A DNA stretch of 64,000 nt from a bacterium (GTDB lineage: Bacteria; Patescibacteriota; Microgenomatia; UBA8517): contig JAKAJP010000022.1 in assembly GCA_021824915.1 (NCBI GenBank), positions 23,832 through 87,831 on the forward strand. Direction: 5' to 3'. A program made the position numbers and the translations under genes. Positions 9,205 to 54,385 of the stretch are shown here, in pieces; position 1 is the first letter of the stretch, and every line of letters starts with the position of its first letter. The notes under the pieces were generated by a model that searched no databases, was not told the origin of the DNA, and was given only the letters and a program-made list of their open reading frames with translations.

Positions 9205-9208
9205 GAAG

Positions 9209-10729: not shown

Positions 10730-10779
10730 TAATGCAATAACTTTCCAAATTTGTCAATCAAATTGAGATCAGCTAGAAT
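10730..10779. promoter_or_regulatory. short divergent intergenic region; possible sigma70-like promoter for the minus-strand operon
   Basis: Minus-strand reading contains TTGACA (complement of 10752-10757), a 17-bp spacer, CATTAT, then about 10 nt to the ATG of the aminotransferase gene. The plus-strand TTGTCA(10751)-N17-TAGAAT(10774) abuts the ATG of the GT4 gene. Confidence 0.25.
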
Positions 10780-12772: not shown

Positions 12773-12774
12773 TG

Positions 12775-13308
12775 CTACTTAACAAGATTTAGGACCTTTG
12801 CCAATACGTCATGAATTTGACCAATTATTCTGTCACCGTTATCGTCGGTCAAATCTTTTAAAGTTGGGGAGAAAGCGTCAATGTTCTCGATTTTTTTAAT
12901 TACTTCATCTCTCACTTGCGGGGTATCACCGCTATTTCTGGCTTTTTCAAAAAGTTTTTGTGAAGATTCAGCTAGCCCCAACGATTTAGAAAGTGATTTG
13001 TCCGAAAGTTCCAGTTTTCCACCCCGGGCCAACTTCTCAGATTCCAAAATTCGTTTTGTCGCTAGAGTGAGATCATATTCCGCCTTCTTTGCCTCGCCCA
13101 CCAAAAGCATCCCCGAAAACTTCTCTTTCAGTTCTTTAAGAAAAAAAAGTGGAGAATCAAGAGTTAGTCCGGCGCTTAACGGCCAGAAAAGTTCATAGCT
13201 ATTTGGAACGGGTGTAGGACTTGGAACCGGAGTTTTGGCGAAAGCCGGGCTAAAGGAAAACAAAAAAACAGCCAAAGTCAAAATTAACACAGAAAGAGAT
13301 TTTCTCAT
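12775..13308 (-). CDS. secreted hypothetical protein with Pro/Thr/Ser-rich N-terminal segment
   Basis: Signal peptide 'MRKSLSVLILTLAVFLFSFSPAFA' followed by 'KTPVPSPTPVPNS', then a helical Lys/Glu-rich domain. Start taken at Met6. Confidence 0.5.
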   Translation of the reverse strand: MRKSLSVLILTLAVFLFSFSPAFAKTPVPSPTPVPNSYELFWPLSAGLTLDSPLFFLKELKEKFSGMLLVGEAKKAEYDLTLATKRILESEKLARGGKLELSDKSLSKSLGLAESSQKLFEKARNSGDTPQVRDEVIKKIENIDAFSPTLKDLTDDNGDRIIGQIHDVLAKVLNLVK

Positions 13309-13329
13309 ACTTACGAAAAACATTATACT

Positions 13330-14355
13330 TTAGTTTGTATTATCCTGTCCACCAAGTCTATTTATATTCGCATCAACCATCAGAGCAACTAGGTGATTAA
13401 AATCCACTTCAGGCTTCCACCCTAAGGTGCGTCTTGCAAAAGACGAGTCCCCAATCAAAGGCCCAGTTTCGGTTGGGCGGATAAATCTCTTATCTACTAC
13501 AACAAATTTTTTATAATCAAGGCCGACATACGCAAAAGCCTCTCGGCAAAAATCAGACACTTTATGAACCACACCTGTAGCAACAACAAAATCGTTAGCT
13601 TTAGGCTTCTGCAAAGATAGCCACATAGCCTTCACGTAATCCCCGGCAAAACCCCAATCACGTTCTGCAGCAAGATTTCCAAGAGCAACTTTACCACCTT
13701 TGACAATTGGTTCACCTTCTTCGTTCAAATGTTTAGACGTATCGATTCCCAACTTGGCGCAGGCAGCTGCATAGGCGATCTTTTGCGTAACAAACTCCAA
13801 ACCCCGCCTCGGGGATTCATGATTAAAAAGAATTCCACAGGAGATAAACATATCATAACTTTTGCGATAAATCCTGGCGATGCTATGAGCATATAGCTTG
13901 GCAGCAGCATAAGGATTTGCAGGATTAAAAGGTGTTTCTTCGTTTTGCGGAACCTCGCGTGCCCAACCAAACATCTCACTGCTGCTTGCCTGATAAAACC
14001 TAGCTTTCGGACAAACATCTTTGGCTGTCTCAATAACCCTGTGGGCACCCAAACCTGTAATTTGAGCTGTATAAACCGGTTGCTTAAAAGATTCACCCGG
14101 AGAACTTTGTGAAGCCAAATTATAGATTTCATCCGGAGAGACTACCTTAAATATTTTTTTAAGAGAAACCGGGTCAAGAAGGTCGCTATAAAAAAGATTG
14201 ATTTTATCCTGCACGTGAGCAATGTTGTCAAAAGCGCGTTGGCTGGATTTCCTGACAACGCCATAAACCTCGTAATTCTTGGAAAGTAAAAGTTCCGCCA
14301 GATAGCTTCCGTCCTGTCCAGTAATGCCGGTGATCAGCGCTCTTTTTTTGGCCAT
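13330..14355 (-). CDS. gmd: GDP-mannose 4,6-dehydratase
   Basis: 'KRALITGITGQDGSYLAELLL', 'YAAAKLYAH' catalytic YxxxK, 'GILFNHESPRRG'; about 340 aa from MAKKRAL start. Confidence 0.85.
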   Translation of the reverse strand: MAKKRALITGITGQDGSYLAELLLSKNYEVYGVVRKSSQRAFDNIAHVQDKINLFYSDLLDPVSLKKIFKVVSPDEIYNLASQSSPGESFKQPVYTAQITGLGAHRVIETAKDVCPKARFYQASSSEMFGWAREVPQNEETPFNPANPYAAAKLYAHSIARIYRKSYDMFISCGILFNHESPRRGLEFVTQKIAYAAACAKLGIDTSKHLNEEGEPIVKGGKVALGNLAAERDWGFAGDYVKAMWLSLQKPKANDFVVATGVVHKVSDFCREAFAYVGLDYKKFVVVDKRFIRPTETGPLIGDSSFARRTLGWKPEVDFNHLVALMVDANINRLGGQDNTN

Positions 14356-14356
14356 A

Positions 14357-15307
14357 TTAATCCAGCACTTCAGAAATATAATCGCCTTCAAAATTCTCCT
14401 TCTGATTGAAGCTTGTAATCATCTCTGCGAGTAAACCTGTTGAGACAAATTGTACACCCATTATCATTAAAAGAACTCCAAGAAATAGTAGTGGGTATCG
14501 ATACTGAATACTTCCGGTAGTAAATCTAAGATAAGCAATATAAATTCCGATCAAAAACCCTCCGGCGAAACTAATAAACCCGAGAAGTCCGAAGAAGTGC
14601 CCGGGTTTCCTGGTGTAGCGGGTCAAAAAGGCAACCGTTAAAAGATCCAGCAACCCCTTTAATGCTCGCTCGAATCCATATTTCGATTTACCATACTTCC
14701 TTGCCCTATGAGCCACAGGAATCTCTGCAACCCTAAAGTTCCTTTTAACGGCAATGATGGGAATTAAACGGAAGAGTTCTCCATAAAAAAAGTGGATATT
14801 CTCAATAACCTCACGTCTAAAAGCCCGAAAACCACAGTTAACGTCATGAAGCTTAACGCCGGTTACTAATCTACTCACAAAGTTGTAAGCCCGACTCGAG
14901 ACGACTTTGCTAATTGGGTCATGTCTTTTTTTCTTCCATCCAACGACCAAGTCGTAACCCTCTTCAACTTTGGAAATGAAACTCGGGATTTCTTTGGGGT
15001 TGTCCTGAAGATCCGCATCCATCGTAATTATAATTCCGCCAACAGCCTGATTAAATCCGGCCTGAAGGGCTGTCGCTTTTCCCCATCCTCCGCGCAATTT
15101 TATAACTTTTACCCTTCGATCATACTTATGAATTTCCTTAAGTTTCTGAAAAGTTTTGTCTTTTGAGCCATCGTCAACAAAAACTATCTCAAATGATCTT
15201 TTCGCTTTTTTCATAACAGCGGCGATCTCGCTATAAAGTGGTTCGATAGAACCTTCCTCGTCTCTCGCGGGAACAACGAAGGAGATAAATTTATTTATCA
15301 TCGCCAT
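14357..15307 (-). CDS. GT2 polyprenol-phosphate glycosyltransferase (GtrB/ArnC/DPM1-like) with C-terminal TM helices
   Basis: 'FVVPARDEEGSI', 'VFVDDGSKDKT', 'DADLQD' (DxD), followed by two C-terminal TM helices as in GtrB/ArnC. Confidence 0.7.
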   Translation of the reverse strand: MAMINKFISFVVPARDEEGSIEPLYSEIAAVMKKAKRSFEIVFVDDGSKDKTFQKLKEIHKYDRRVKVIKLRGGWGKATALQAGFNQAVGGIIITMDADLQDNPKEIPSFISKVEEGYDLVVGWKKKRHDPISKVVSSRAYNFVSRLVTGVKLHDVNCGFRAFRREVIENIHFFYGELFRLIPIIAVKRNFRVAEIPVAHRARKYGKSKYGFERALKGLLDLLTVAFLTRYTRKPGHFFGLLGFISFAGGFLIGIYIAYLRFTTGSIQYRYPLLFLGVLLMIMGVQFVSTGLLAEMITSFNQKENFEGDYISEVLD

Positions 15308-16416
15308 AAATATACATCATTAATAAGATTTAAGCTAATTTGACGGGACCTTACCCAATCAAAATTTTTGCTCCAGATAGCCGCTCCGCGGACAAGTTTT
15401 TCATAATTCCCCCGATTTCTAGTAACTGATAAAATTGCCTCTTTCATTGAAGAGGGGTTTCTTTCACAAATTAATCCACTAACACCATTCTTAATGGAAT
15501 CAACCAAACCCGCAGAATTATATGCAACAACGGGGGTTCCAACGAAATTTGCTTCTATATTTACCAGACCCCAACCCTCGTGAATGGAAGGATTAATAAG
15601 TAGACATGATTTCGAAAGAAGTCGAAACTTCTTACTTTCATTTACATATCCCCAAAATTTAATACGATTTCCCAAAGGTTTTGCAAAATTCCTGATTTTT
15701 TTCTCGTAATCCTTATTTTCTCCTTTTCCAATTACCCAAAAACGGAAATTATACGAATCTTTTAGGAGCAGAAAACATTTAATCGCATCTTCAATTCCCT
15801 TATCCTTTGACAAAATACCCAAAAAACTTATTGCACCTTTCACTTTGTTGTTTATATTAGTTTTCGGTTTTAGTGCTGGTAAAATGACCCCATGAGGAAC
15901 TATGTAGATTTTATTTCTGGAAATACCATATCCAGCCAAATCTTTTTTCGCAGAATCCGACCCTGTCATGAAAGGTACGTTTCTGTAAAAGAGAAAAAAA
16001 ATCGGTTCAAATAGAAAGCCCAAAGTCCCGATAATTAAATTAAGAGGAAAGGCCAGAGAATTCTTTAACCAAACATCTCTGGCTATTTCTTGAATAACCG
16101 CAAGCTTCGGTTTTCGCGAATAGATGGGTGTAAAAAACGGAACCCCGTGGAACTGATCAACAATAAAATTAAAATTACTCCTATTCTTGATGTAATAAAA
16201 AAATCCGGAAATCTGGACTCCCAGATATTGAAAACCTCCTCTGACAATCTTAACCCCATCTATTTCTTCATCACTTCTTAGACCTCCCGGCTGAGACGAG
16301 AAAAGAGTTACATTATGTCCGGCCGCCACCCAACCCTTCATATGTTCATGCATAACCTGCTCTGCCCCACCGGCAAGTGGGTGTTTCGGGTCCCTCCAAG
16401 AAAAAACTAAGATATT
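15298..16416 (-). CDS. glycosyltransferase family 4
   Basis: 'MNILVFSWRDPKHPLAGGAE' N-terminus and 'LINPSIHEGWGLVNIEANFVGTPVVA' C-terminal GT4 motif. Start set at MNILVF, leaving a 7-bp gap to the upstream stop. Confidence 0.7.
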   Translation of the reverse strand, partial: NILVFSWRDPKHPLAGGAEQVMHEHMKGWVAAGHNVTLFSSQPGGLRSDEEIDGVKIVRGGFQYLGVQISGFFYYIKNRSNFNFIVDQFHGVPFFTPIYSRKPKLAVIQEIARDVWLKNSLAFPLNLIIGTLGFLFEPIFFLFYRNVPFMTGSDSAKKDLAGYGISRNKIYIVPHGVILPALKPKTNINNKVKGAISFLGILSKDKGIEDAIKCFLLLKDSYNFRFWVIGKGENKDYEKKIRNFAKPLGNRIKFWGYVNESKKFRLLSKSCLLINPSIHEGWGLVNIEANFVGTPVVAYNSAGLVDSIKNGVSGLICERNPSSMKEAILSVTRNRGNYEKLVRGAAIWSKNFDWVRSRQISLNLINDVYLWR

Positions 16417-16423
16417 CATAAAC

Positions 16424-18280
16424 CTATTGTACCCTCCAAATCTCAGCATTGGCATTGCTAAAAATTTTTTCAACTCCAAAATCTCCGGGAGAAAAAGGCA
16501 ATTTTTCTACATAGTTCTCAAATTTAACCAAATAAATATATTTCGCACGCAACTTGTCAAACTCAGTTTTTGCCCCTTTCTGGTCTTTGGCGCTAAAAAT
16601 GGTTTTATTGTAAATCACCGGCATACCAGAATACTTACTGACATATCCTCTAAGATTTGAAAACTCGGGAGGTCTGTTTTTAGTGTGCCATGAGCATTGC
16701 AAACACTCTCCGTCGTAAACAACAACATTTCCATATGGTTGAGACTTTAAGTATATTAATGCATAGACCTCACCCTGAGGTATTACATAATCCACTTTCT
16801 TAAAATAATTCCAGCCCCGCCCAATCAATAGATAAAAAAATGCGAGCTTCTGTTTAAAAAAATGCAAGGCTTCGGAAGAAAAACCTTTGATATTAACACC
16901 CATATCCGAAACCAAATTATTAACGATCAAAATCTTAACGCCGCCGTCAACCTTCGTAACATTGACGAGCGCAGACTTCTTTATGAAGTCTGGTACATTT
17001 ATGTTTTTCCCTTTTATCGTAAAGTAGTCGCTACCCGGAATTATTTCAGTATCCCCTCCCAATATCCACAAATCTTTAGAATTTGAGACGTTATCAATAA
17101 CCGCAGGAACATTTTCAGATAGAGTAAATTGAAAGTTCGGAGAATTGTAATAAGGATCTTTCAAACTTGTTCCGTAAATTCTTAGGTCTAAAATCCTTAA
17201 CTCATTGGTGTTATTATCCTTAACATAAAACAAGCGATATCTTGCACCCCCGTACCAAAAAGAGCTTACATTTTCTCCAAGAAGGTCCCTTGATTCAATC
17301 CTGTAATCAGGTGTACCCGAAAATTTCTTTCTGTACCAATCCGAAAAATCGGACATAGTAACAATATTCACACCCCCCACCCTAAGTTCATTTGCGTATT
17401 CAAGTTGTTTTGCATACTCACCTTTATAACCAGCAGGATCAAGGTCTGCCTCTAATCCGATTGTAACTTGAGAAAACCCGTTAAGATTACCGCTTTCAAG
17501 ATATAAATTAACAAGCTTCTTAAAATAACTAATGTTCTGTTTCTCCGGTGCAACCAAATAATCCTGTGTACTATATAAACTGCTTTTGTATCCGTTAAGC
17601 GGATCTCTTGGAGCCCACTGAATATTAACAACGTCCACTTTTGACTCCATATCGGCCGCGGGAACACTAGAATATAGTTTGCTTGGATAATAAGCGAGTT
17701 CCCATGGCTGCCCCCAAATTTGATACCCATCTGTGGAGAATTGATCTGAACAGACAAGGTTTGCTGTCACACCGTACTTGTCATGTATATATGAAAGCGA
17801 ATAAGAATCTGTCCACCAGGAACCAACTGATTTTGGATAATAACCAAATACGCTTTTGAATTTATCAAAAATGGCATCTATTAATTTTTTACGATCTGTC
17901 TGCTCATATCCCGATAGAAAAACACTGCCGGCATGCTGCCAAAAACCCGTATCGTTATAGTTAATATGGGAACTCTGGGCTAAATTTGGCGTGATCTCTA
18001 AAAATATTCCAAATTCCTGATTTTTACCCATGCTACTTACAACTTTCATAACATCTCTATTATCCAAAGCATCATAAGTCAAAAGCCATGTGGCAGGTAA
18101 TCCATGCTCTTTTACAATTCCATACTCGCTTTTAACGCTTTCCCCGGGGTTTTTATTATAGGAAGATATGCGGACTGGATTAACTATGGTTACAAACCTA
18201 TCCGAACTCGATGCATCCACCCGAGGAGGAAAAATAAAAATGAAAAGAGAGAAAAAGAAAAAGAATTTTAACTTAGCCAT
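16424..18280 (-). CDS. secreted hypothetical protein, 618 aa (possible carbohydrate-active/deacetylase-like N-terminal domain)
   Basis: Hydrophobic signal peptide 'MAKLKFFFFFSLFIFIFPPRVDA', no further TM segments, many N-x-S/T sequons. No motif recognised with confidence. Confidence 0.4.
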   Translation of the reverse strand: MAKLKFFFFFSLFIFIFPPRVDASSSDRFVTIVNPVRISSYNKNPGESVKSEYGIVKEHGLPATWLLTYDALDNRDVMKVVSSMGKNQEFGIFLEITPNLAQSSHINYNDTGFWQHAGSVFLSGYEQTDRKKLIDAIFDKFKSVFGYYPKSVGSWWTDSYSLSYIHDKYGVTANLVCSDQFSTDGYQIWGQPWELAYYPSKLYSSVPAADMESKVDVVNIQWAPRDPLNGYKSSLYSTQDYLVAPEKQNISYFKKLVNLYLESGNLNGFSQVTIGLEADLDPAGYKGEYAKQLEYANELRVGGVNIVTMSDFSDWYRKKFSGTPDYRIESRDLLGENVSSFWYGGARYRLFYVKDNNTNELRILDLRIYGTSLKDPYYNSPNFQFTLSENVPAVIDNVSNSKDLWILGGDTEIIPGSDYFTIKGKNINVPDFIKKSALVNVTKVDGGVKILIVNNLVSDMGVNIKGFSSEALHFFKQKLAFFYLLIGRGWNYFKKVDYVIPQGEVYALIYLKSQPYGNVVVYDGECLQCSWHTKNRPPEFSNLRGYVSKYSGMPVIYNKTIFSAKDQKGAKTEFDKLRAKYIYLVKFENYVEKLPFSPGDFGVEKIFSNANAEIWRVQ

Positions 18281-19054
18281 TTAACTCACAATCCAATTTT
18301 TTCGGTTCTTTTCGTCATAATAATGAAGGATTTTTAACCTGTAAAAAACTGCCGCCGTATCCCAGGCCATCCAAAACGAGGTGTTCCATTTTATAGCACT
18401 CGTTTTTCTATCAAACCTAACTTCAATTGGAGCTTCGTAAATCCTGCCAAAGCCTAGGTATTTCGCGACCGACAACATCTCAATATCCATTGCATAACTT
18501 TTTACCAAAAGTCGCGGAAGGATCTTTTCAACAACACTTCTCTTAAATATTTTAATTCCGCTCTGGGTATCAGATAGATGAAGTCCAAAAAGCACCTTAA
18601 CACCCAGATGGTATCCCCAACTTAGTATACGGCGAAGAAAAGGATAATTAACTCTCGAGACCGGATGTTTCTTAGACCCGACAATTATATCAGCGTCGTA
18701 CCAATTCATATGTGCCAGAAGCATCATTATCCCTTTGGGGCTAATATCCATTCCAGCGTCAAGAAAAGAAATAATATCTCCCTTGGCCTTCGCCATACCA
18801 AACCTTACAGCATGGCCTTTACCATGATTATTTTTATAACCATAGACCTTTAGTTTCGTGGATTTGATTTTTGAAGCTTCCTCAAAAGTTCTATCTAAAT
18901 GTCCGTCAACAACGCAGATGACCTCAAAGTTATAGTCCCGTCCAAGCCCTTCATCAAGGGTAAAGAGGATATTTCTCAGGTCTCTATTTATAGTCCGCTC
19001 CTGCCTGTAAGCCGGTACTATAACCGAAAGTATCTTAACCTTTGCTTTTTTCAT
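18281..19054 (-). CDS. glycosyltransferase family 2
   Basis: 'LSVIVPAYRQERTI', 'VICVVDGHLDRT', 'LDAGMD' GT-A signatures. Confidence 0.7.
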   Translation of the reverse strand: MKKAKVKILSVIVPAYRQERTINRDLRNILFTLDEGLGRDYNFEVICVVDGHLDRTFEEASKIKSTKLKVYGYKNNHGKGHAVRFGMAKAKGDIISFLDAGMDISPKGIMMLLAHMNWYDADIIVGSKKHPVSRVNYPFLRRILSWGYHLGVKVLFGLHLSDTQSGIKIFKRSVVEKILPRLLVKSYAMDIEMLSVAKYLGFGRIYEAPIEVRFDRKTSAIKWNTSFWMAWDTAAVFYRLKILHYYDEKNRKNWIVS

Positions 19055-19055
19055 G

Positions 19056-20303
19056 TCACCTAGCGGGCTGATTATACCTCAAGTATGCCGCTTCACCCAA
19101 AAGCATCAGGGTAGAAACAATCAGCGATACCTGGATAACTTCCTTAATGCTTTCATGGAAAATCCAAATGAAAACAATCTGGGATAGAGCCGCAACCACG
19201 GGAAATATTATTACCCTAGTCCTTCCAATAGACAAGGAAAAATTAACCAACAAAACCGCAAGTGTATAGACCAAGATAAAAAAACCCATCCAGATAAGAT
19301 CTTCTGAAGCGGATAAATAAGCATTGCCATACAAAACCCCTATAGCCAGATTTGGGAACAGATAATAGAGAGATACTATAAATAGCGATATAAAAAGAGT
19401 CGCTCCAAAAGACGCCCAAAAAATCTTTTTATATTTACCCCCTTTCGCTACTCTTCCGGAAACAACAGGAAACATCACGGAAGATATCGGAGAAGAGGCA
19501 AAAAAAATGATCTTTCCTAGAGTGGAAAGGGCTGCGTATATTCCGGCATTAAACGGCGAAAGAAAATGCTTAACCAAAATAATATCAGTTGTAAAAAGAG
19601 ATGTAAAAGCCAGAGCTTGTAGTAAAACAGGCAAAGAATACCGCAAAAATGGGTAAATATCATAATCGACACTCCCGACGTCAGATTTAACCAACTTTCG
19701 GATATAGGGCAAGGATACGAAATAAGCCAACACACCGCCCAGCAAAACTCCATACATAGCCCCCAAAACCGAATAACCCAAAGCAATAAGTAAAACGCCC
19801 AATACAATCTTTATTACAGACGAGGCCATATTCGGTAAAACAAAACCCATAAATTTAAGAAGGCCTTGGGATGTTGCTTGGTTGACCAAGGTTATCAAAG
19901 AAAAAAACAGAATTGGTGAAATTAGTATCACCAAAAAAACATTGTTTATATGCAAAAACGAAGCAATAAAAGGCGAGACAAACAATAAAGCAATTGCCAA
20001 AATAAAGGCAATTATTAAGACTAGTTTATTTATCGCAAAATAAATACGTCCCGCGGACTTATCGGTCTCTGCGGAAGAAATAAATTTCACAACAGCAACC
20101 GAAGTTGAAGTCGGAACAATTGCAACAATATAAAGAATCGAGAATAAACTGGCTAAAACTCCGTAGTTTACAGGTCCCAACATCCGTCCAACCACAAGAT
20201 GGTACGCGTAATTAATGACATTGACGGCCATGCTACCACCAATCATGATAGCGCTGCCCGAAAAAAGCGGGTGTCTTAGAAAATTAAAAATTTTCTTATT
20301 CAT
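19056..20303 (-). CDS. oligosaccharide/polysaccharide flippase (Wzx-like, MOP superfamily)
   Basis: About 12 TM helices, and conserved N-terminal region typical of PST-family flippases. ATGA overlap with the upstream gene. Confidence 0.6.
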   Translation of the reverse strand: MNKKIFNFLRHPLFSGSAIMIGGSMAVNVINYAYHLVVGRMLGPVNYGVLASLFSILYIVAIVPTSTSVAVVKFISSAETDKSAGRIYFAINKLVLIIAFILAIALLFVSPFIASFLHINNVFLVILISPILFFSLITLVNQATSQGLLKFMGFVLPNMASSVIKIVLGVLLIALGYSVLGAMYGVLLGGVLAYFVSLPYIRKLVKSDVGSVDYDIYPFLRYSLPVLLQALAFTSLFTTDIILVKHFLSPFNAGIYAALSTLGKIIFFASSPISSVMFPVVSGRVAKGGKYKKIFWASFGATLFISLFIVSLYYLFPNLAIGVLYGNAYLSASEDLIWMGFFILVYTLAVLLVNFSLSIGRTRVIIFPVVAALSQIVFIWIFHESIKEVIQVSLIVSTLMLLGEAAYLRYNQPAR

Positions 20304-21448
20304 GATAACCAATAACCACGGATAAAAAACATCTCTGAAACAATTAAAGAAACCGCCATTAGTATATATAGCAGAAATTTAAAAATTCTGGGAACCTTAT
20401 TCAAATAAAAGGCAACCAGGATAAATGCCGGAAACAATATCAAAACATACCTTGGTATCGATGAAAAACTACCGGAGAATGTCGGCAGCAAATAACCCAT
20501 GGAAAGAAAAAGTGCATAACTAAACCTGAGTTTAATAAATGACCAAACAGATAAAACCAAAAATATTGCTCCTGTAAAAAATTCAAAAAACACAACATAG
20601 ACCGAAGGAAAATAGTTGATATTTAGTGAAGGAATGATTCTAAAAATATATCTGTAAAATACCTGGGGCAACAAAATTAGATTATCAGATCTCTGCGCGC
20701 CAAAAACACTGACGGTATGATAGAAATTAATCGGATCCCCTGTTGCCCGCCAAAGATAGTATATATAGATCAAAAACCCGATCATTGCCAAGGGCAAGAC
20801 TAAAACCAACTTCCACCAACCCCCATCAAGCTTCTTATGGGCCTTATAAAATTCAAAAAAAATAACGGGTACCAAAATTATTCCCACCAATCTTGTAGCC
20901 GAAGATAATCCAGCGAGGATTGCCGAATAAAACCATTTTTTCTTTCTGGCAAAATAAAAAGACCAAACGGATAGTGCCAAAAAAAGACTTTCTGTGTACA
21001 CCGCCCCAAAATAAAATGATGTGGGAAATAATAGAAGAAGAATAAGAGTTGTCTTAGCGACTGAATCTTCGTAGTCCAACTTGACCAGCTTCCATAGACC
21101 AAAAAGAGCAACGATTAAACCGAAATGAGAAACCAGAAGACCGGAAAACACATAGCTTCCGAAACCATTAGCCCAAATTCTTGTAAAAAACCTGATCAAT
21201 AGTGGAAAAAGCGGAAAAAAATAATAGGTCAACGGTCTATATCCCTCGCGTGCTAAGGCAATATAATGCTCTCCGTCAAAATTTGCCCACGACCAAAAAT
21301 ACGGGTTTTTTAGATAATTCAATAGTCCTCCGCCCAAAAAATCATGCTGAAGCGGAAGAAGTCTAATGGCAAGATATTGCAGAAGAAAAAGGGTTAGCCT
21401 CCAAACAACGAAAAGCCCGATTATGAAGTAAATATTTTTCCTAGACAT
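20300..21448 (-). CDS. GT-C fold membrane glycosyltransferase, PIG-V/mannosyltransferase-2-like
   Basis: 'FDGEHYIALAREGY' and 'YYFFPLFPLLIRF' resemble the PIG-V-type DxxWYxxIAxxGY motif. Paralog of 62551..63711. About 9-10 TM helices. Confidence 0.5.
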   Translation of the reverse strand: MSRKNIYFIIGLFVVWRLTLFLLQYLAIRLLPLQHDFLGGGLLNYLKNPYFWSWANFDGEHYIALAREGYRPLTYYFFPLFPLLIRFFTRIWANGFGSYVFSGLLVSHFGLIVALFGLWKLVKLDYEDSVAKTTLILLLLFPTSFYFGAVYTESLFLALSVWSFYFARKKKWFYSAILAGLSSATRLVGIILVPVIFFEFYKAHKKLDGGWWKLVLVLPLAMIGFLIYIYYLWRATGDPINFYHTVSVFGAQRSDNLILLPQVFYRYIFRIIPSLNINYFPSVYVVFFEFFTGAIFLVLSVWSFIKLRFSYALFLSMGYLLPTFSGSFSSIPRYVLILFPAFILVAFYLNKVPRIFKFLLYILMAVSLIVSEMFFIRGYWLS

Positions 21449-22547
21449 TTTTGATTACTCTTTTATAGACATTCAAAGTTTGAGCTGCAGTCTCTCTCCA
21501 GGAAAATTTTTTAGATATAGCTAGTCCGGTATTAACAAGTTGATTTCTTAAAATCTCATCATCATAGACAGATCTAATTTTTTCCGCAAAATCATTTACA
21601 TCATTCGGATCAGCAAAGATCGCGCCGCCTTCTCCAATTTCAACTAATGCCTGAGTTTTACTCGCCACAACAGGCGAACCGGATGCAAACGCCTCAACTA
21701 AAGGCAAACCAAAGCCTTCATATAAGGATGGCTGACAATAAACCGTAGATAATTTATAAATTACTGCCAAATCCTCATCCGGAACAAAACCCAACCTAAA
21801 AACTTTAGGATTATCCTTGAAATCATTTAACAATAATTGATAATGTTCAAGTTCTGGGTGAGGCAACCCAAAAAGAAACCTGACATAATCCATTGGTCCC
21901 TTGAGAGATCTCAGGTCCATGCCACCAGCTTCCAAATCGAGTGCTTGCTTACCCGCAATTACCAAGTTTACATCTGCTACCTTGCAGGCCTTAATGAGAG
22001 TCGGAATATTTTTATTGTAATTAATATCCCCAACATAAAGTACAAATTTGTCCGGCAGCTTATATTTATCCTTAACAACTTTCAATCCGGTTTTTAACCC
22101 GCCAACAAAGGTCTGTCTGGGAGCTAAATAAATAACATGTACTTTCTCGGGTTTGACATCTAGAAACCTACAAATATCCTTTTTCGAAGTTTCAGAAATG
22201 GTTATAATTGCATCCACATTCTTCTTAATAAGAAGTTTATTTATCAAAAACCTGATACCACCTTTAATCCCGGATGGATAATGTTTCGGGTAAATGAGTG
22301 GGATTAAATCATAGATTGTAATTACAAATTTCGTGTGCTTTGGCTTATAAAAAGGCAGGGAAATTTCAAACGGCTTAAACGATGTAAAATGAACAACATC
22401 ATACTTACTCAAGTCTTCGCTTCTGACATCAACCCCATCAATTTTCAAAGCCCTCAGAAGTTCCCTAGCATAGACGCCAATACCCCGAACCGAATGACCG
22501 GAAGAAAGGGGGCCAGAGTCTATGGCAATATTTGCAATTTTAGGCAT
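21441..22547 (-). CDS. glycosyltransferase family 4
   Basis: 'YCQPSLYEGFGLPLVEAFASGSPVVAS' GT4 motif. Start set at MPKIANIAID (Met35) because the longer ORF would overlap the divergent argF. Confidence 0.7.
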   Translation of the reverse strand: MPKIANIAIDSGPLSSGHSVRGIGVYARELLRALKIDGVDVRSEDLSKYDVVHFTSFKPFEISLPFYKPKHTKFVITIYDLIPLIYPKHYPSGIKGGIRFLINKLLIKKNVDAIITISETSKKDICRFLDVKPEKVHVIYLAPRQTFVGGLKTGLKVVKDKYKLPDKFVLYVGDINYNKNIPTLIKACKVADVNLVIAGKQALDLEAGGMDLRSLKGPMDYVRFLFGLPHPELEHYQLLLNDFKDNPKVFRLGFVPDEDLAVIYKLSTVYCQPSLYEGFGLPLVEAFASGSPVVASKTQALVEIGEGGAIFADPNDVNDFAEKIRSVYDDEILRNQLVNTGLAISKKFSWRETAAQTLNVYKRVIKNV

Positions 22548-22570
22548 ATCCAAATTATACTCGAGGTGGA

Positions 22571-23479
22571 ATGAAGAAAAAAGCGAGACGCTTCCTATCC
22601 ATCTCTGACCTATCAACCACTGAAATAAAGAAAGTGCTGAACCTAGCACTCAAGATCAAACACAATCCAAAGAAATATTCGAATAAATTAAAGGGGTTAA
22701 CTCTAGCCATGATTTTCGAGAAACCATCACTTAGAACAAGAGTTTCATTTGAGACCGGAATGACTCAGCTTGGAGCCCACGCAATTTATTTAGGGCCCAA
22801 CGACATTCAAATGGGTGTTAGAGAAACTCCTTCCGACATAGCCAGAAATCTGGAAAGAATGGTCGACATTATTATGGCAAGAGTTTTTGAACATCAAAAA
22901 TTAATTGAGTTGTCAAAAGACACGAAAGTTCCCGTAATAAACGGCCTAAGCGACCTTGAACACCCCTGCCAGGCGATGGCTGATATCCTCACGGTCTTAG
23001 AAAAAAAGAAAAAGCTTAAAGGACTCAAACTAACCTTTATAGGAGATTGTGAAAATAATGTCACCCACTCACTTGCAATTCTTTGCGACAAACTCGGAAT
23101 GAAGTTTTTCTGTTCTGCCCCAAAAGGATATGAAATGAAAAAAGAGGTTGTTAAAACACTCAAAAATAAAATTACTGAGGTCGTTGACCCTAAAAAGGCA
23201 ATCGAAAATGCGGATATTGTTGTTACAGACACATGGATAAGTATGGGTGACGAAAAAGAAAAAAAGACTAGGCTGAAAGTTTTTCCGCCATATCAAATTA
23301 ATTCAAAGCTAATGAAGCGGGCGAAGGCGGATGCAATTTTCTTGCATTGCTTACCGGCATATCGTGGATTTGAAGTGACGGATGATATCATCGATGGACC
23401 CCAATCGGTAGTCTTTGATGAGGCAGAAAATCGCCTTCATGTGCAAAAAGCTCTAATTCTCTTCTTATTGGGAAAGTGA
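22571..23479 (+). CDS. argF: ornithine carbamoyltransferase
   Basis: Carbamoyl-phosphate site 'SLRTRVSFE' (STRTR), 'HPCQAMAD' (HPxQ) and 'HCLP' ornithine-binding motif; 302 aa. Confidence 0.85.
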   Translation: MKKKARRFLSISDLSTTEIKKVLNLALKIKHNPKKYSNKLKGLTLAMIFEKPSLRTRVSFETGMTQLGAHAIYLGPNDIQMGVRETPSDIARNLERMVDIIMARVFEHQKLIELSKDTKVPVINGLSDLEHPCQAMADILTVLEKKKKLKGLKLTFIGDCENNVTHSLAILCDKLGMKFFCSAPKGYEMKKEVVKTLKNKITEVVDPKKAIENADIVVTDTWISMGDEKEKKTRLKVFPPYQINSKLMKRAKADAIFLHCLPAYRGFEVTDDIIDGPQSVVFDEAENRLHVQKALILFLLGK

Positions 23480-24337
23480 ACTGACATACTTAAAGAACGC
23501 AATCGGATAATGCATTGCCGAAAAGAATGCCCACAAAAATCCGGCTACTCCATCAAGAAAACCTTTATGGCGAAAGTAAATATTCACGAAGGTATATAGA
23601 GGTTTACCCAAACAATAACTTACAAAACCCAAGAAATTTGCTTTTACCTTCTTTGATCTAAACTCACCTGCTTGCAAATCGGTATATCTATTCATTCTTG
23701 ATAAATACCTTCTTAGGGTCGGAGAATCATAATGTTTCAGCGGGTTAAAAAGCCACGAGACTTCCCCGTCTACCTCTATTTGCTCATGTACCGATTTTTG
23801 GGGAAATCTTGCTTTTCCATTTTTTACAAGTCGTATAACCCCGTCGGGATAAACACCGCCATATCTCAATGGCTTCCCTAGAAAAATGTTTAATCTCGGA
23901 ATAAAGAAAGCAACAACCACCCCGGTATTTTTTCCTATCTTCCCGTCTCGTTCTTCAATCAAACGCTGGTGCTTCCTAAAATGCGTCTCTTCAAGGGTGT
24001 CAGGGTTAATTCTCTTTTTGATTTCTTCATTTGTCATTCCGATTACTTCTTTTATTTCTCTCGCGAGTTCCGGCGTAACTTCTTCATCCGCATCAAGCTG
24101 AAGGATCCAAACACCGGTAGCTTTCTCTAATGCCTTCTCCTTGGTTATATGAAAAATTTCATGATGAGGTTCAAGATAAACTTTTGCACCAAAACTTTCA
24201 GCAATTTCAGTAGTCCGGTCAGTTGAATGCTCATCAACAACTATTATCTCATCGGCAATGTCTTTAACCGATCCTAAACACCGGGCAATGTTCTTCTCTT
24301 CATTTCTCGTTGCCAAAATAACCGAAAGTTTTTCCAT
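23465..24337 (-). CDS. glycosyltransferase family 2 (paralog of 44149..44874 and 45801..46697)
   Basis: 'LSVILATRNEEKNIARCL', 'IIVVDEHSTDRTTEIA', 'LDADEEVTPEL'. Confidence 0.7.
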   Translation of the reverse strand: MEKLSVILATRNEEKNIARCLGSVKDIADEIIVVDEHSTDRTTEIAESFGAKVYLEPHHEIFHITKEKALEKATGVWILQLDADEEVTPELAREIKEVIGMTNEEIKKRINPDTLEETHFRKHQRLIEERDGKIGKNTGVVVAFFIPRLNIFLGKPLRYGGVYPDGVIRLVKNGKARFPQKSVHEQIEVDGEVSWLFNPLKHYDSPTLRRYLSRMNRYTDLQAGEFRSKKVKANFLGFVSYCLGKPLYTFVNIYFRHKGFLDGVAGFLWAFFSAMHYPIAFFKYVSSLSQ

Positions 24338-24338
24338 T

Positions 24339-25988
24339 TTAATTAGCTACCAAATCAAAGTATTCATAACCATTTGTACCATAAATCCTTTTAATGATAT
24401 TGGCTTCTTTTGGTATTTCTTGAGTGGTGCCCGCTACTAAAGATTCAGGGTATTTGGCTTTAATTTCATCCCAAGTTGTAAATGTAACAAACCTGTATTT
24501 GTCAAAACTTCTGACAGTTGAGAAGCCAAAATTATCTCTTGCTGTCAATGAATGACTTCCCTGAAAATTCTGCGGAAGATACTTTGAGTAAAACAAGAAC
24601 AAAATATAGGGTTGATCATACCTATCCGTGACAACAACATTTTTATATTTTGATTGATTAGCATTAACATAACCAACCAACTCTTTGACTCCATATTGCG
24701 AGGAAAAAGGATATTCCTTGCTCATGTGGACCCAATACATATGTTCATATCTGGCAAAATTCCAAGACACCAAAATAATAACAGTGGATAGATAGATAAC
24801 TTTCAATTTTCTTGTCGGATTTTTATTTATCCACTCAAGTATTTGGTAAAGCCCATAAGCGCTAAAAATTATTAGTGGAATAATCATGTTTTGTGAGCGA
24901 AGCGCATTCGGTGATTGAAATGTAAGCGCTGACGCCATTGGAGCAATTGCTAACCAATAAGTAATAAACTTCCATTCGCGGTTGAATCTTTTGGCAATAG
25001 CGACTACCCCAATAGTCAAGAAGATTATATCGAAAAGATACATTTGTCCGGTTTCCGGAACTTTATTTCTCTGAATTGCATCGCCTGACAAAAACAAAAA
25101 CTCCCCATGATAATGCGATGCCCAGTTTGCTGCAAAAGCCAACCCATAATTCACGGCTTTATTATGTAACGCCTTGGTAAAAATATTATTAAGATCACCG
25201 TGCTCGCCACGCTGCTCATTTATTCGATTTCGTGGGCCGGGGTCTGCAAATAACCCCACCCCAGCAACTCTTGAAAGCGCTCCAGGAGAGGTAAGATCAC
25301 GGGCAAGTGGCACAAGTAAAATCAAGGTAATGCCGGCAAAAACCACATATGGAATAATCTTATTAAATATCTCCTTTTTGTAGAAAAATACTATTCCTAA
25401 CCCAAGGAGCGGAACCACAACTCTGGCGGCATGATAAGTATACAAAGACGCAACTAAAAATACCGAGCTCAAAGCCAGAGAAAAGATTTTCTCCACAAAT
25501 CTTTGTGATCGAGCCCTAAAAAAGAAAAACATTCCCGCAACAATGAAAAACGTGGCGACATTCACTTCCCAACCACCCCGGGAAAACTGCAGATGCCAAG
25601 GAGAAATTGACAAAAGGAACGCAGAGATCAAAGCGAACTTTTTATTTCCAAAAATCTCATTCACCAAAAGATACACAAACAAGATAGTTAATACTCCGAG
25701 GGCAGCGCCCGGAATTCTGACCGCCCACTCATTTAATCCTAATATTTTTACGAATGGCAAAACCAAATAAAAATAAAGACCGGGTTTGTAATCGTTAAAC
25801 GATTGAAAATGAATTGGCCAAGCATTTCCGTGCTCGTCATGCCCGGTCAGTATCAATGAATAAGCGTTGTATCCGATCGCGGCTTCATCTGCATTCAATG
25901 CCGGGTAAACATCAAGTTTGTAAAACCTCAAAAAGATTGCTAGGGAAAGAATCAAAATCAAAATTATATTTTTCTTCAAAAATTGCAT
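24339..25988 (-). CDS. GT-C fold glycosyltransferase, PMT/ArnT (GT39)-like, 549 aa
   Basis: Loop-1 'NADEAAIGYNAYSLILTGHDEHG' (DE motif), 'SPWHLQFSRGGWEVNV', about 11 TM helices, conserved C-terminal soluble domain 'QPYILFLFYSKY'. Confidence 0.65.
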   Translation of the reverse strand: MQFLKKNIILILILSLAIFLRFYKLDVYPALNADEAAIGYNAYSLILTGHDEHGNAWPIHFQSFNDYKPGLYFYLVLPFVKILGLNEWAVRIPGAALGVLTILFVYLLVNEIFGNKKFALISAFLLSISPWHLQFSRGGWEVNVATFFIVAGMFFFFRARSQRFVEKIFSLALSSVFLVASLYTYHAARVVVPLLGLGIVFFYKKEIFNKIIPYVVFAGITLILLVPLARDLTSPGALSRVAGVGLFADPGPRNRINEQRGEHGDLNNIFTKALHNKAVNYGLAFAANWASHYHGEFLFLSGDAIQRNKVPETGQMYLFDIIFLTIGVVAIAKRFNREWKFITYWLAIAPMASALTFQSPNALRSQNMIIPLIIFSAYGLYQILEWINKNPTRKLKVIYLSTVIILVSWNFARYEHMYWVHMSKEYPFSSQYGVKELVGYVNANQSKYKNVVVTDRYDQPYILFLFYSKYLPQNFQGSHSLTARDNFGFSTVRSFDKYRFVTFTTWDEIKAKYPESLVAGTTQEIPKEANIIKRIYGTNGYEYFDLVAN

Positions 25989-25989
25989 A

Positions 25990-27642
25990 TTATTTAACGG
26001 CTAAAATTCTAAAAGCAATATCCCGCCCGTTCAAGTATTTTATCTCGGAAACAAGCTTAAACAGATTTGTATCACTTGAATCCTCCGGAGGAATTCTGAC
26101 CGGATCCGCGACGAATAAAGTTCCGTGTTCTCCCCTATTGACCGACCAATCAATTGGGGCAAACTGTATATTATCAAGTGTCAAAATATAGCCAACATCA
26201 TTTATGTTTCCACTTGAAACAAGCTTCGCATTTTTTTGGTACTTAGCGGGGTCGTATTTCTGATAAAAAAGAAAGTAAATATAGGGTTGGGCAAAAGATT
26301 GTTGGACCTTAATTATTTTGTAGTCTTTCTCAAGTGGCGTAACCGTTTCAACAATTTGTTTATAACCGTAATTCCAATATATAGAATCATGAGCGGGAAC
26401 ATGAACAAAATAAGCATCCAAAAAATAAACAAAACCGGCGACGTAAAACATAGCAAAGAATCCAGACAAAACTAACACCGACGAAGTTTTTTTGAAATTG
26501 TCAAAAAATGTCATCAGCCCGAAAGAAATTAAAATTATTAACGGAACTTGCATATTAATAGCCCGGACGGCATGCACTTGATCCCGCGAAAGTACCGCCG
26601 GGAGCGGGGACAAAACCAACCACAACCAAACAAACAAAGCTTCCTTAGATTTTCCTTTCTTAAGAAAGGAAAATGCTCCGACAACAATCAAAACAATATC
26701 GCCTAAAAGGAGCATCCCCTGATACGGGGCGGATTGTCTGGGGTTACTAAAGTCCCCTTCAAAAAACAGAAATCTTCCAGAAAAATGATTAAAATATCGC
26801 CCCAAGATACCTCGCATGAAGTTTAATCCTTCAGAATGAAATAAATAGTAATTTAAATCACCAATCTTTTCTCCACCCTCATCAAGAAACGCCTGTGTAT
26901 AATCTTTCGGCCTCGGATATGAAAAAACACTAAAGACATCAAGCCGACCTGCCTGACCGTTAAACAAACTCAAAACAATAGGCAAAGAGATAATAATTCC
27001 TAAAGTAATTCCACTAAAAAGATACTTTTTTTCAAATTTAAGAATTTGTTTCCAATAAAGAATCGCCAAAAGCACCACTACGATTCCAGTCGAAAGTTTT
27101 GCTCCTTGATATGTTAATAAAGTTAAGGCAAATAAAACTGATGACAAAACAAAATATTTTGACTTTTCCAACGCCTTAAGAAAAAAATAAATTCCCGCAA
27201 GCGTGAGGGTTAGAGAGACATTAACTTCCCAAGCTCCCCGGGAAAAATAAACCGACCAAGGGGTAACCGAAGTAACGAAAGCCGTAAAAATTCCCACCCT
27301 TTTCCCGAACAGGTTAGAGCAAATTAAATAAATCAGAAAGACCGACAGAATTCCTGCAAGTGCGGATGGTAATCTTGTCGAAAATTCATTCAGACCCAAA
27401 GCCGCTACAAACGGTGTATCGAGATAGATATAAAAACCGGGTTTGTAATCACCGAACGACTTAAAAATTATTGGTAAAAACTTACCATACTCATCCCGAC
27501 CAGTCTTCAATATTGAGTATGCGTTATAACCCAATGCCGCTTCATCGGAAGTTAACCCCGGGGGGGTTGTCCCCAACTTCCAAAGCCGCAAGACGGCCGC
27601 CAAAACTAAAATTGAAATCAAAAGCCAGTTTATTTTTCGCAT
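25990..27642 (-). CDS. GT-C fold glycosyltransferase, PMT/ArnT (GT39)-like paralog, 550 aa
   Basis: 'TSDEAALGYNAYSILKTGRDEYG', 'TPWSVYFSRGAWEVNV', C-terminal 'QPYIYFLFYQKYDPAKYQ'. About 50% identical to 24339..25988. Confidence 0.65.
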   Translation of the reverse strand: MRKINWLLISILVLAAVLRLWKLGTTPPGLTSDEAALGYNAYSILKTGRDEYGKFLPIIFKSFGDYKPGFYIYLDTPFVAALGLNEFSTRLPSALAGILSVFLIYLICSNLFGKRVGIFTAFVTSVTPWSVYFSRGAWEVNVSLTLTLAGIYFFLKALEKSKYFVLSSVLFALTLLTYQGAKLSTGIVVVLLAILYWKQILKFEKKYLFSGITLGIIISLPIVLSLFNGQAGRLDVFSVFSYPRPKDYTQAFLDEGGEKIGDLNYYLFHSEGLNFMRGILGRYFNHFSGRFLFFEGDFSNPRQSAPYQGMLLLGDIVLIVVGAFSFLKKGKSKEALFVWLWLVLSPLPAVLSRDQVHAVRAINMQVPLIILISFGLMTFFDNFKKTSSVLVLSGFFAMFYVAGFVYFLDAYFVHVPAHDSIYWNYGYKQIVETVTPLEKDYKIIKVQQSFAQPYIYFLFYQKYDPAKYQKNAKLVSSGNINDVGYILTLDNIQFAPIDWSVNRGEHGTLFVADPVRIPPEDSSDTNLFKLVSEIKYLNGRDIAFRILAVK

Positions 27643-32363: not shown

Positions 32364-32370
32364 AGCTAAA

Positions 32371-37698: not shown

Positions 37699-37699
37699 A

Positions 37700-39252: not shown

Positions 39253-39258
39253 TATTTT

Positions 39259-45797: not shown

Positions 45798-45800
45798 AGA

Positions 45801-46697: not shown

Positions 46698-46699
46698 AT

Positions 46700-51534: not shown

Positions 51535-51606
51535 TTTTCGGTAGGTTTAATTATGAACTAATTTCAGAATTATTCATATAATCTGGCGTTAGCCCTCAAA
51601 ACGAGG

Positions 51607-53190: not shown

Positions 53191-53229
53191 ATCTCAATTC
53201 TAACCCGAACCAATTTTTGAAGCAATAAA

Positions 53230-54323: not shown

Positions 54324-54385
54324 GACAACCCATTATACAATAATAACACGGTGCAACCCTATCCAAAGTCTCACAAACATCAAGC

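Follow-up and report, generated by a model that had tools for sequence, protein, structure and literature searches.

Bacterial GT-C glycosyltransferases with PIG-V-like and ALG6-like features in a Microgenomates surface-glycan island

Does a glycan gene island in a Microgenomates bacterium hold a repertoire like that of the ER lumen? The question was raised by a first-pass annotation of a 64-kb stretch of DNA (the window), which saw homologs of three eukaryotic lumenal glycosylation branches side by side: two PIG-V-like paralogs, an ALG6-like gene and PMT-like genes. The claim centers on three predicted membrane proteins:

20300..21448, minus strand: gene A, predicted GT-C(A) glycosyltransferase of 382 aa, whose conserved N-terminal module is PIG-V-like (GT76-like)
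62551..63711, plus strand: gene B, predicted GT-C of 386 aa, member of a very conserved sister family of A, with a PMT_2-type score
32371..33657, minus strand: gene C, predicted GT-C(A) glycosyltransferase of 428 aa, ALG6-like across nearly its full length

All three open reading frames are present as listed and are identical to the gene calls on the public contigs. The most fitting interpretation is that they are ordinary bacterial GT-C enzymes that would decorate the cell surface, rather than parts of an ER-like pathway. The window holds at least 19 GT-C-type genes, and no tRNA or Rfam features were found within it. Genes A and B had been taken for the two ends of the cluster; they are not, since glycan genes run on for about 20 kb to the left of A and continue past both ends of the window. 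(Even the long contigs of this lineage reach only about 0.6–1 Mb.)

What kind of proteins are these? A and C, in their structure models, and putatively B have an all-helical polytopic fold in which a conserved N-terminal transmembrane (TM) module is joined to a variable module, as is typical of GT-C(A) enzymes. Helices were taken from the helix lists of the structure models, because Kyte-Doolittle counting is too crude for proteins of this type. A conserved acid lies in the predicted first extracytoplasmic loop after TM1:

21266..21283, minus strand: N56-F-D58-G-E60-H61 of A, acidic DxE motif of the first extracytoplasmic loop, with the candidate catalytic base
62698..62715, plus strand: Y50-D51-G-P-L-Y55 of B, first-loop motif with a single invariant Asp
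33547..33573, minus strand: D29-VNNHID-W36-G37 of C, first-loop motif, D29 being the candidate catalytic base

A catalytic acid in this loop is a hallmark of the class (PMC6801728, PMC13503287), and the base of GT-C(A) enzymes sits in the first luminal-loop helix (PMC13503287). The first-loop Asp and a C-terminal R-Y motif (PRY in A, 20447..20455; MRY in B; part of HERY in C) are invariant in all three families. This invariance makes it highly improbable that one or more of the proteins is a non-catalytic GT-C-fold scaffold or lipid-binding subunit, the role that PIG-U has in the GPI transamidase: the catalytic motif is missing from PIG-U itself (PMC6056205, Table 1), and the island has no transamidase-like partner. 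Searches found no Wzy_C or EpsG profile match, no PF09594 score at the gathering threshold (25 bits) and no PimE match, and no WaaL/SEDS-like fold was seen.

How close is A to PIG-V? Direct and specific similarity is supported by sequence comparison for the N-terminal conserved module only. The A family profile aligned with human PIG-V at a probability of 91.6% in hhalign (E 8e-7), compared with at most 0.8% for shuffled or reversed controls and only 3–9% for ALG6 and Gpi14. BLASTP of A itself against human PIG-V gave E 5e-6 over 239 aa at 24% identity. The two proteins are collinear across A residues 2–223, and the similarity runs out near residue 223 of A and residue 234 of PIG-V. (The human PIG-V query was validated by its score of 710.6 bits against PF04188.) Within the shared module, N56–H61 of A falls on W-D-A-E-H of PIG-V, with DGE on DAE, and FPLFPLLIR falls on FFPGFPLAL. 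A carries at D58-G59-E60 the D/ExE element that has been reported between TM1 and TM2 as a PIG-V motif (PMC6056205, Table 1). Among 63 A orthologs, N56, F57, D58 and G59 are invariant, and E60 and H61 are conserved in at least 90%. The structure model of A has a GT-C fold.

At the level of Pfam, the relationship is marginal. Gene A has no PF04188 match even at E ≤ 10 (gathering threshold 22.4 bits). Ten orthologs chosen by hand, each with about 50% identity to A, exceed the gathering score marginally, with 26–40 bits, and match profile positions ~46–253 only; a precomputed PF04188 match is present in 16 of the 120 best A orthologs. The architecture of a full-length PIG-V (~490 aa, spanning the whole 443-position profile) was not found in A. 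In evolutionary terms, A would sit in a bacterial family bordering on GT76/PIG-V.

Gene B had been grouped with A on the strength of shared motifs, and these are real:

21191..21217, minus strand: FPLFPLLIR in A, residues 78–86
62803..62829, plus strand: FPLFPLLIR in B, residues 85–93

This exact 9-mer occurs in no other open reading frame of the window, and a common string of nine residues arose in none of 300 shuffles. An upstream block, FDGEHYIALA in A and YDGPLYLVAA in B, shares [FY]DG..Y; the longer pattern originally written for it fits B and misses A by one residue, an L where [A/V] was specified. BLASTP aligned A and B over 177 aa at 26% identity (E 4e-9), and the two family profiles aligned over 287 columns in hhalign (probability 97.9%, E 5e-13). 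The first-loop Asp is invariant across both families combined. The two families are homologous along this stretch of about 290 columns. To call A and B paralogs is too strong, however: at about 25% identity, each belongs to a conserved family of its own.

The PIG-V resemblance, which had been extended to both genes, holds for A and fails for B. The B family reached a probability of only 0.1% against PIG-V in hhalign; none of its 61 members matches PF04188, and B itself has no match at E ≤ 10. The D/ExE element is absent from B because D51-G52-P53 stands in its place, with N49, D51, G52 and P53 invariant in 61 orthologs. B orthologs are 70–87% identical, and B scores 33.6 bits against PMT_2, above the gathering score. 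It would appear that B represents a sister family, related to A and lacking the PIG-V signal.

C resembles ALG6 along almost all of its length. When a broadened C-family HMM was run against all PDB sequences, profile positions 11–390 (380 positions) matched ALG6 (6snh_X) at chain positions 59–443 with E 5.4e-12; the next match was Gpi14 at about 1e-8, and there was nothing else at E ≤ 10. In hhalign, the C family aligned with ALG6 at a probability of 94.1% over 346 columns; ALG6 was the best solved relative of C by three independent methods, and it is also the closest fold among solved structures. Only the broadened profile reached ALG6: a single C ortholog found nothing real in the PDB, nor did the narrow A, B, C and A+B family HMMs. 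Two further conserved elements of C enter the comparison:

33463..33480, minus strand: W60-PNQPP of C (family consensus PNYPP)
32626..32637, minus strand: H341-E-R343-Y344 of C

The ALG6-like N-terminal block that had been noticed in C was borne out by the HMM alignment. D29, invariant in 66 diverse relatives, falls on the Asp of YGDFEAQRHW in ALG6 (presumably Asp69) and W36 on its Trp; PNQPP falls on GLDYPP, with P64 and P65 conserved in at least 90%. Toward the C-terminus, HER is aligned to HEK in the ALG6 motif VHEK, and R343 is invariant. The catalytic Asp of ALG6 and its flanking motifs (GD[FY]E…W, LDYPP and HEK) are therefore in register with C. The alignment reaches no further than position 443 of the 562 in the ALG6 chain. 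The C-terminus of C reads …QTRAGKI, without KKxx, and the 14-TM layout with additional C-terminal helices plus a dilysine signal is not found in C.

Against PF03155, C scored 11.4 bits (E 0.15), below the cut-off of 25 bits, which was passed by two of 10 individually checked orthologs (29.9 and 29.5 bits). PF03155 was matched by 11 of 61 C orthologs (E ≤ 0.01) and by three of the 66 diverse relatives (E ≤ 0.001). The profile searches proposed in the first-pass annotation thus came out mixed: A and B lack PF04188, C stays under its PF03155 cut-off and PF09594 does not reach threshold, while some orthologs pass PF04188 or PF03155. The C family numbers about 7,700 representatives at 50% identity. 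Its commonest Pfam match among C relatives is GT87, and its distant relatives fall into clusters labelled "Gpi18-like". A genome scan for C relatives returned only Microgenomates-type genomes because the peptide patterns used were very specific; it is silent on distant taxa. On this evidence, C appears to come from a large bacterial family, most of it not covered by Pfam models, with ALG6 (GT57) as the closest characterised relative; this ALG6-like family is the mildly novel part of the island.

Should the island then be seen as ER-lumen-like? On that view, its PIG-V-, ALG6- and PMT-like genes would be specific sisters, ancestors or transfers of GT76, GT57 and GT39, and the island would have a direct bearing on how ER glycosylation arose. 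A and C are indeed distant kin of PIG-V and ALG6, but several observations make the wider proposal quite unlikely. Identities are only 16–24%, and the match of A stops after the conserved module. C orthologs match GT87, PIG-U and ALG3 about as frequently as ALG6/8, and at least 44 of the 66 diverse C-family members match no Pfam family. The top structural neighbor of the bacterial enzyme PimE is also ALG6 (PMC12041525), so ALG6 seems to be a general attractor for small enzymes of the GT-C(A) class. GT76 annotations exist for Actinobacteria and Firmicutes, and both GT76 and COG5542 "Gpi18-like" labels are routinely given to bacterial proteins. (The JGI label on A, B and C orthologs alike is "Gpi18-like mannosyltransferase".) All of the eukaryotic families named are GT-C class A. 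With a single superfamily, a bacterial three-component context (see below) and labels that are commonplace, the larger claim was over-interpreted: the "three ER branches" are nearest-neighbor labels inside one expanded superfamily.

A narrower evolutionary proposal is that the C family is a prokaryotic sister of ALG6/ALG8 (GT57), and the A family likewise of PIG-V (GT76). This is doubtful. If true, the split between ALG6-like, PIG-V-like and PMT-like GT-C(A) enzymes would be older than eukaryotes or would involve bacterial donors, and phylogeny and biochemistry could then be used to test the origin of the ER-lumen glycosyltransferases, which is considered unresolved (Lombard 2016). In the literature, the ER-lumen ALG glycosyltransferases are apparently eukaryote-specific, with only remote PMT/DUF2029 relatives in prokaryotes; we found nothing there specifically on GT-C expansions in CPR or Microgenomates, nor on COG5542 or PF04188 in bacteria. 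A large bacterial family whose match to ALG6 extends from one end to the other and takes in the catalytic motifs could serve as an outgroup for rooting GT57, GT58 and GT50 and as a tractable small homolog for mechanistic work.

What might these enzymes do? Their neighbors offer the best clues:

18281..19054, minus strand: small GT2, a DPM synthase relative and candidate polyprenyl-phosphate-sugar synthase for A
19056..20312, minus strand: MOP/Wzx-type flippase (Polysacc_synt, precomputed Pfam), its frame overlapping the end of A by 13 nt
21441..22649, minus strand: GT4 glycosyltransferase directly upstream of A with 8 nt overlap, synteny conserved
24339..32363, minus strand: five more GT-C-type genes downstream of C
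33654..35408, minus strand: PMT_2-type GT-C directly upstream of C, with 4 nt overlap
61795..62499, minus strand: small GT2 divergent from B across a 51-bp gap, candidate polyprenyl-phosphate-sugar synthase

The best solved relative of the GT2 near A is dolichol-P-mannose synthase (DPMS; E 2.5e-12), and the order GT2–flippase–A is kept at A orthologs in two other genomes, so that an adjacent, conserved synthase, flippase and GT-C stand together. For B, the GT2 partner is present (best solved relatives ArnC, 6.7e-17; GtrB, 5e-13; DPMS, 5.5e-11) and the divergent pairing is kept in three genomes, while the flippase role is filled only in part. Just outside the window, near B, there is a GT2-GtrA fusion. 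C and its upstream PMT_2-type neighbor are also paired in a Blackburnbacteria genome. The five-gene run contains three PMT_2 matches, one weak PMT_2 match and a 487-aa gene with a paralog that matches YfhO weakly.

All three proteins are likely to be catalytically active GT-C(A) glycosyltransferases of a Microgenomates surface-glycan island. Each would accept one sugar from a polyprenyl-monophosphate-sugar donor at the outer face of the cytoplasmic membrane and pass it to a lipid-linked glycan, a wall polymer or a surface protein, with the invariant first-loop Asp (D58 in A, D51 in B, D29 in C) as the presumed catalytic base. In this picture the fold, the homology, the conserved motifs and the synteny are observed, whereas the kind of donor, the side of the membrane, the catalytic residue and the acceptor are inferred. 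A would be the GT-C part of a conserved, translationally coupled module with the GT2 (18281..19054) and the MOP flippase (19056..20312); B would be served by its divergent ArnC/GtrB/DPM1-like GT2, and C would act amid the run of PMT_2-type GT-Cs. For A and B, we infer a polyisoprenyl-phosphate sugar donor from the adjacent ArnC/GtrB/DPMS-like genes; the lipid-phosphate acceptor of these small GT2s is suggested by the catalytic domain, since the membrane domains of GtrB and ArnC are absent. Bacterial systems built from a synthase, a MOP/MATE flippase and a GT-C are already established (Kelly et al. 2024, PMC11127046).

The Wzx-like protein beside A could instead flip a pyrophosphate (PP)-linked oligosaccharide, which would suit a different role: A, and perhaps B, as a Wzx/Wzy-type polymerase or ligase acting on undecaprenyl-PP-linked repeat units, in the manner of an oligosaccharyltransferase or Wzy. 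That assignment is rather improbable, and both the fold and the profile searches speak against a Wzy/EpsG polymerase identity for A. Under the preferred reading, that of single-sugar GT-C(A) transferases, three unnamed CPR membrane proteins gain a class assignment, a candidate catalytic Asp, and likely synthase and flippase partners, and their eukaryotic family names serve as nearest-neighbor labels, not as pathway calls. With no fewer than 19 GT-C-type genes in its 64 kb, the window suggests that extracytoplasmic glycan assembly driven by lipid-phosphate sugars is a major investment in this CPR lineage, perhaps analogous to mycobacterial wall assembly, and this could bear on how CPR episymbionts build or disguise their surface.

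How does the island compare with known systems? Like PIG-V/Gpi18 (GPI mannosyltransferase II, which adds the second mannose of the GPI precursor from Dol-P-Man; GT76, PF04188, COG5542), A has the N-terminal module and the first-loop motif D-x-E-H…A..GY…FFP.FPL. Unlike PIG-V (493 aa), it is only 382 aa long, with a variable C-terminal half that cannot be aligned, and A orthologs score 26–40 bits against PF04188, where human PIG-V scores about 710. B differs further, with D-G-P for D-x-E and no detectable PIG-V similarity. The window showed no genes of a GPI pathway, so a eukaryotic-type GPI acceptor for A cannot be assumed. From ALG6/ALG8 (the Dol-P-Glc glucosyltransferases of the ER; GT57, PF03155, PDB 6SNH/6SNI), C differs in being 16% identical and about 115 residues shorter; it lacks the extra C-terminal helices and the dilysine ER-retrieval signal of these 14-TM proteins (PMC6801728), and the gene context of its family lacks the Man9GlcNAc2-PP-dolichol pathway.

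Closer in kind are the PimE-type GT-Cs of mycobacteria and corynebacteria (GT87; PF09594/DUF2029), which are likewise small bacterial all-membrane GT-C(A) enzymes. PimE uses a polyprenyl-P-mannose donor made by the GT2 Ppm1 and has a first-loop catalytic Asp, D58 (PMC12041525). There, a wall glycan is built by many GT-Cs working in series, and this offers the best functional parallel to the island. In GtrA/GtrB/GtrC, ArnC/ArnEF/ArnT, CsbB/GtcA/YfhO and GT136 systems, as here, a conserved GT2 synthase, a flippase and a GT-C are adjacent, and the flippase of the A module is of the MOP type, which is also the type found in the GT136 systems (Kelly et al. 2024, PMC11127046). Unlike those three-component systems, however, the GT-Cs here come from PIG-V-like and ALG6-like families, and instead of one modifying enzyme per locus, there are at least 19 GT-C-type genes in a single island.

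A single unbroken glycan-assembly island spans the window (38.4% GC), as judged from precomputed and fresh Pfam matches; nearly all of its genes lie on the minus strand, and no tRNA or Rfam features were found in the window. At least 19 of the 52 ORFs are GT-C-type genes (PMT_2, PMT or YfhO matches; 4528..63711), and a tandem run at 24339..36976 places eight such genes in succession on one strand, five of them PMT_2 paralogs with mutual identities of 27–33%. GT-C genes take up a very large share of sequence for a lineage with long contigs of only ~0.6–1 Mb. Besides two flippases of the MOP/Wzx type, the island holds roughly a dozen GT2 and roughly six GT4 genes, along with methyltransferases, epimerases and a DegT-type sugar aminotransferase (9209..10729, minus strand; residues 19–375), onto which is fused a C-terminal domain of ~110 aa; this domain matches Polysacc_synt_C and, less well, cupin/FdtA-like models. 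The GT-C run is broken at 53230..55490 (minus strand) by small ORFs (217, 84, 67, 96 and 260 aa) without any family match; by eye, the 260-aa protein seems to carry an HGGH-like, nucleotidyltransferase-style motif. Neither Pfam nor NCBIfam gives a match for three large minus-strand ORFs, 16424..18280, 46700..48361 and 29261..30724 (618, 553 and 487 aa); the last is 38% identical to 49807..51534, itself a weak YfhO match.

Three of the GT-C ORFs, at the positions already assigned to them, are considered here:

20300..21448, minus strand: protein A, 382 aa
62551..63711, plus strand: protein B, 386 aa
32371..33657, minus strand: protein C, 428 aa

Identical genes occur on public metagenome-assembled contigs (e.g., NCBI GCA_021843035.1), near homologs carry the names Candidatus Woesebacteria, Blackburnbacteria, Microgenomates or Patescibacteria, and JGI labels the orthologs of all three alike as "Gpi18-like mannosyltransferase" (COG5542). 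We predict that A, B and C are bacterial GT-C(A) enzymes acting in three-component surface-glycosylation modules.

The motifs described for A and B are indeed common to both: the exact nonapeptide FPLFPLLIR (A 78–86, B 85–93), absent from every other ORF of the window, with [FY]DG..Y some 20–30 residues N-terminal of it (FDGEHYIALA in A, YDGPLYLVAA in B). No 9-residue string was shared in 300 shuffles. At the sequence level the likeness goes beyond a motif, with a BLASTP match of E 4e-9 (26% identity over 177 residues) and a probability of 97.9% over 287 aligned columns between the family profiles (63 orthologs for A, 61 for B). The two, called paralogs in the first-pass annotation, are not recent paralogs but members of distinct families, ~25% identical and each conserved separately. 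Nor do they bracket the cluster, since glycan genes fill the window to the left of A and run past both ends.

How close is A to PIG-V? By itself, A gives only a sub-threshold PMT_2 match and none to PF04188. Among its top 120 orthologs (~50% identical), precomputed annotation assigns PF04188 to 16 and PMT_2 to 19, and 10 of 10 hand-picked orthologs pass the PF04188 gathering score (26–40 bits; cut-off 22.4), always within profile positions ~46–253 of 443. The human PIG-V query was validated first: its 493 aa match the full PF04188 profile at E 1.5e-213 (710.6 bits), in agreement with the published 4e-216 (PMC6056205). Against it the A-family profile scores E 8e-7 at a probability of 91.6%, aligning NFDGEHYIALAREGY…FFPLFPLL on HWDAEHFLFIAEHGY…FFPGFPLA, and A alone gives a collinear BLASTP match (A 2–223, PIG-V 7–234; E 5e-6, 24% identity). 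Shuffled and reversed PIG-V never exceeded 0.8%; ALG6 reached 3.4%, Gpi14 8.5% and the window's own PMT_2 genes 0.2–51%. The catalytic motif reported for PIG-V is D/ExE in the TM1–TM2 interval (PMC6056205); A carries D58-G-E60, with D58 invariant and E60 kept in at least 90% of orthologs. A is therefore PIG-V-like in its conserved N-terminal module, whereas it is shorter than PIG-V and its variable half is unrelated in sequence.

Protein B is unusually conserved (70–87% identity over 119 listed homologs), passes PMT_2 and is weakly similar to the NCBIfam AZOBR_p60025 "cell surface glycopolymer formation" family. None of 61 B-family members matches PF04188, the B-family profile does not see PIG-V (0.1%), and the first-loop motif, D51-G-P, has no second acidic residue. 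The proposed PIG-V likeness of B therefore holds only transitively, via A.

For C, the N-terminal block singled out in the first-pass annotation (D29VNNHIDWG, W60PNQPP) is present, and is exactly the block that aligns to ALG6. C alone falls below threshold for GT87 (E 0.007) and Alg6_Alg8 (E 0.15). Among 61 evenly sampled orthologs, 13 match GT87, 11 Alg6_Alg8, nine PIG-U and four ALG3, and individual orthologs clear the gathering cut-off of now one, now another of the four models, so sequence profiles alone do not single out ALG6. Foldseek, the family HMM and hhalign do. ALG6 is the sole Foldseek match at E ≤ 1e-3 (2.2e-7, TM 0.72). When C and 65 diverse relatives (23–49% identical) are combined in a broad profile, a PDB search returns ALG6 at E 5.4e-12 (profile 11–390, chain 59–443), then GPI-MT-I at ~1e-8, and nothing else at E ≤ 10; PimE and ALG3 are both absent. 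With hhalign, the C family matches ALG6 at a probability of 94.1% over 346 columns (controls ≤0.2%, PIG-V 0.5%). The family-invariant D29 falls on the Asp of YGDFEAQRHW, presumably the catalytic Asp69 (chain index 87 less an 18-residue tag would give 69), W36 on Trp, PN[Y/Q]PP on LDYPP and MHERY on VHEK. C is thus ALG6-like over nearly its full length, but it fails PF03155, is only 16% identical to ALG6 and ~115 residues shorter, and has neither the additional C-terminal helices nor the dilysine signal known from ALG6/8 (PMC6801728).

An exhaustive HMM search returned 7,696 representative relatives of C, 536 of them at E ≤ 1e-30, and at least 44 of 66 diverse members have no Pfam match. That so large and mostly unmodelled a family matches ALG6 end to end was less expected. 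The lumenal ALG transferases were considered apparently eukaryote-only, with no more than remote prokaryotic matches to PMT/DUF2029 (Lombard 2016), and our literature search yielded nothing on bacterial GT57-like proteins. A specific sister relationship nevertheless seems improbable, since ALG6 is also the nearest structure to PimE, a bacterial enzyme (PMC12041525). Several species-representative MAG records with C-family genes (38–57% identical to C), namely L014, L015, L017, L018, L021, L023, L024, L028 and L036, bear the title "uncultured Gammaproteobacteria bacterium". Their gene content fits Microgenomates-type Patescibacteria, so the name is probably a placeholder or an error.

The broader idea that the island unites three ER branches is better replaced by lineage-specific expansion of one superfamily, since the families invoked (PIG-V, ALG6 and PMT types) all belong to one clan (PMC6056205, PMC6801728). 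Bacterial PIG-V-like proteins are not new either, as CAZyme surveys routinely list GT76 for ordinary bacteria, Subtercola and Lachnospira eligens among them. What survives of the overall interpretation is the N-terminal module of A and nearly all of C; B is neither PIG-V- nor ALG6-like directly. Of use are the ALG6-like family and the classification itself, while the mechanism class is already established.

A GT-C(A) enzyme is built from a conserved module of seven helices and a variable one, binds a polyisoprenyl-phosphate sugar and carries the catalytic base on the first luminal-loop helix (PMC13503287), as with D58 of PimE (PMC12041525). A, B and C each have an invariant Asp straight after TM1, and in the C-terminal part of all three stands the motif R-Y-x-[LY]-x-x-[FP]-P:

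20429..20455: PRYVLILFP, in A
63538..63564: MRYSLPLFP, in B
32608..32634: ERYLYPVFP, in C

In C this aligns to VHEK…LIPLLP of ALG6, and the motif may be a superfamily-wide element binding the donor phosphate. Together with the gene context, the GT-C(A) features make it likely that all three would transfer a glycosyl group extracytoplasmically from a polyprenyl-phosphate-sugar donor onto a surface glycan or surface protein.

That context is conserved. A overlaps the upstream GT4 frame by 8 nt and the downstream MOP flippase by 13 nt. The gene after the flippase encodes a GT2 of 257 aa, to which dolichol-P-mannose synthase is the closest protein of solved structure (E 2.5e-12). Two other genomes (loci L011 and L012) keep the order GT4–A–flippase–GT2, although their A orthologs are only 51–53% identical. 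The adjoining Wzx could instead flip PP-linked units for A as a Wzy- or OST-like enzyme, but fold, profile matches and the kinship of A with PIG-V make this main rival less likely. Behind the module, the 618-aa gene at 16424..18280 holds its position in L011 too (635 aa there) and could be the missing polymerase. Between the upstream GT4 and a GT2, the island contains an aspartate/ornithine carbamoyltransferase gene in the opposite orientation (22571..23479, plus strand); its absence from L011 and L012 suggests a local insertion.

The divergent neighbour of B, 51 bp away, is a GT2 of 234 aa that most resembles ArnC, GtrB and DPMS, and the arrangement PMT_2–DHH–PMT_2–GT2 <> B … GT2-GtrA–TrmD–rml is kept in three genomes (the window and loci L009 and L010). 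The DHH/DHHA1 phosphoesterase amid the PMT_2 genes is at 59277..60269 (minus strand). A GT2-GtrA fusion and dTDP-rhamnose genes lie directly past the right window end; on contig L005 (11163..21161), B is directly followed by a NUDIX hydrolase, the fusion, TrmD, the dTDP-rhamnose genes, four in number, and a gene for a CAP-domain protein, which hints at rhamnose in the island's glycan. C overlaps an upstream PMT_2 gene by 4 nt, a pair also found in a Blackburnbacteria genome.

Bacterial three-component systems are organised as synthase, MOP/MATE flippase and GT-C (Kelly et al. 2024, PMC11127046), and the A module matches this with its putative GT2 synthase, MOP flippase and GT-C. The island as a whole would work most like the mycobacterial pathways in which successive GT-Cs build up the wall glycans.
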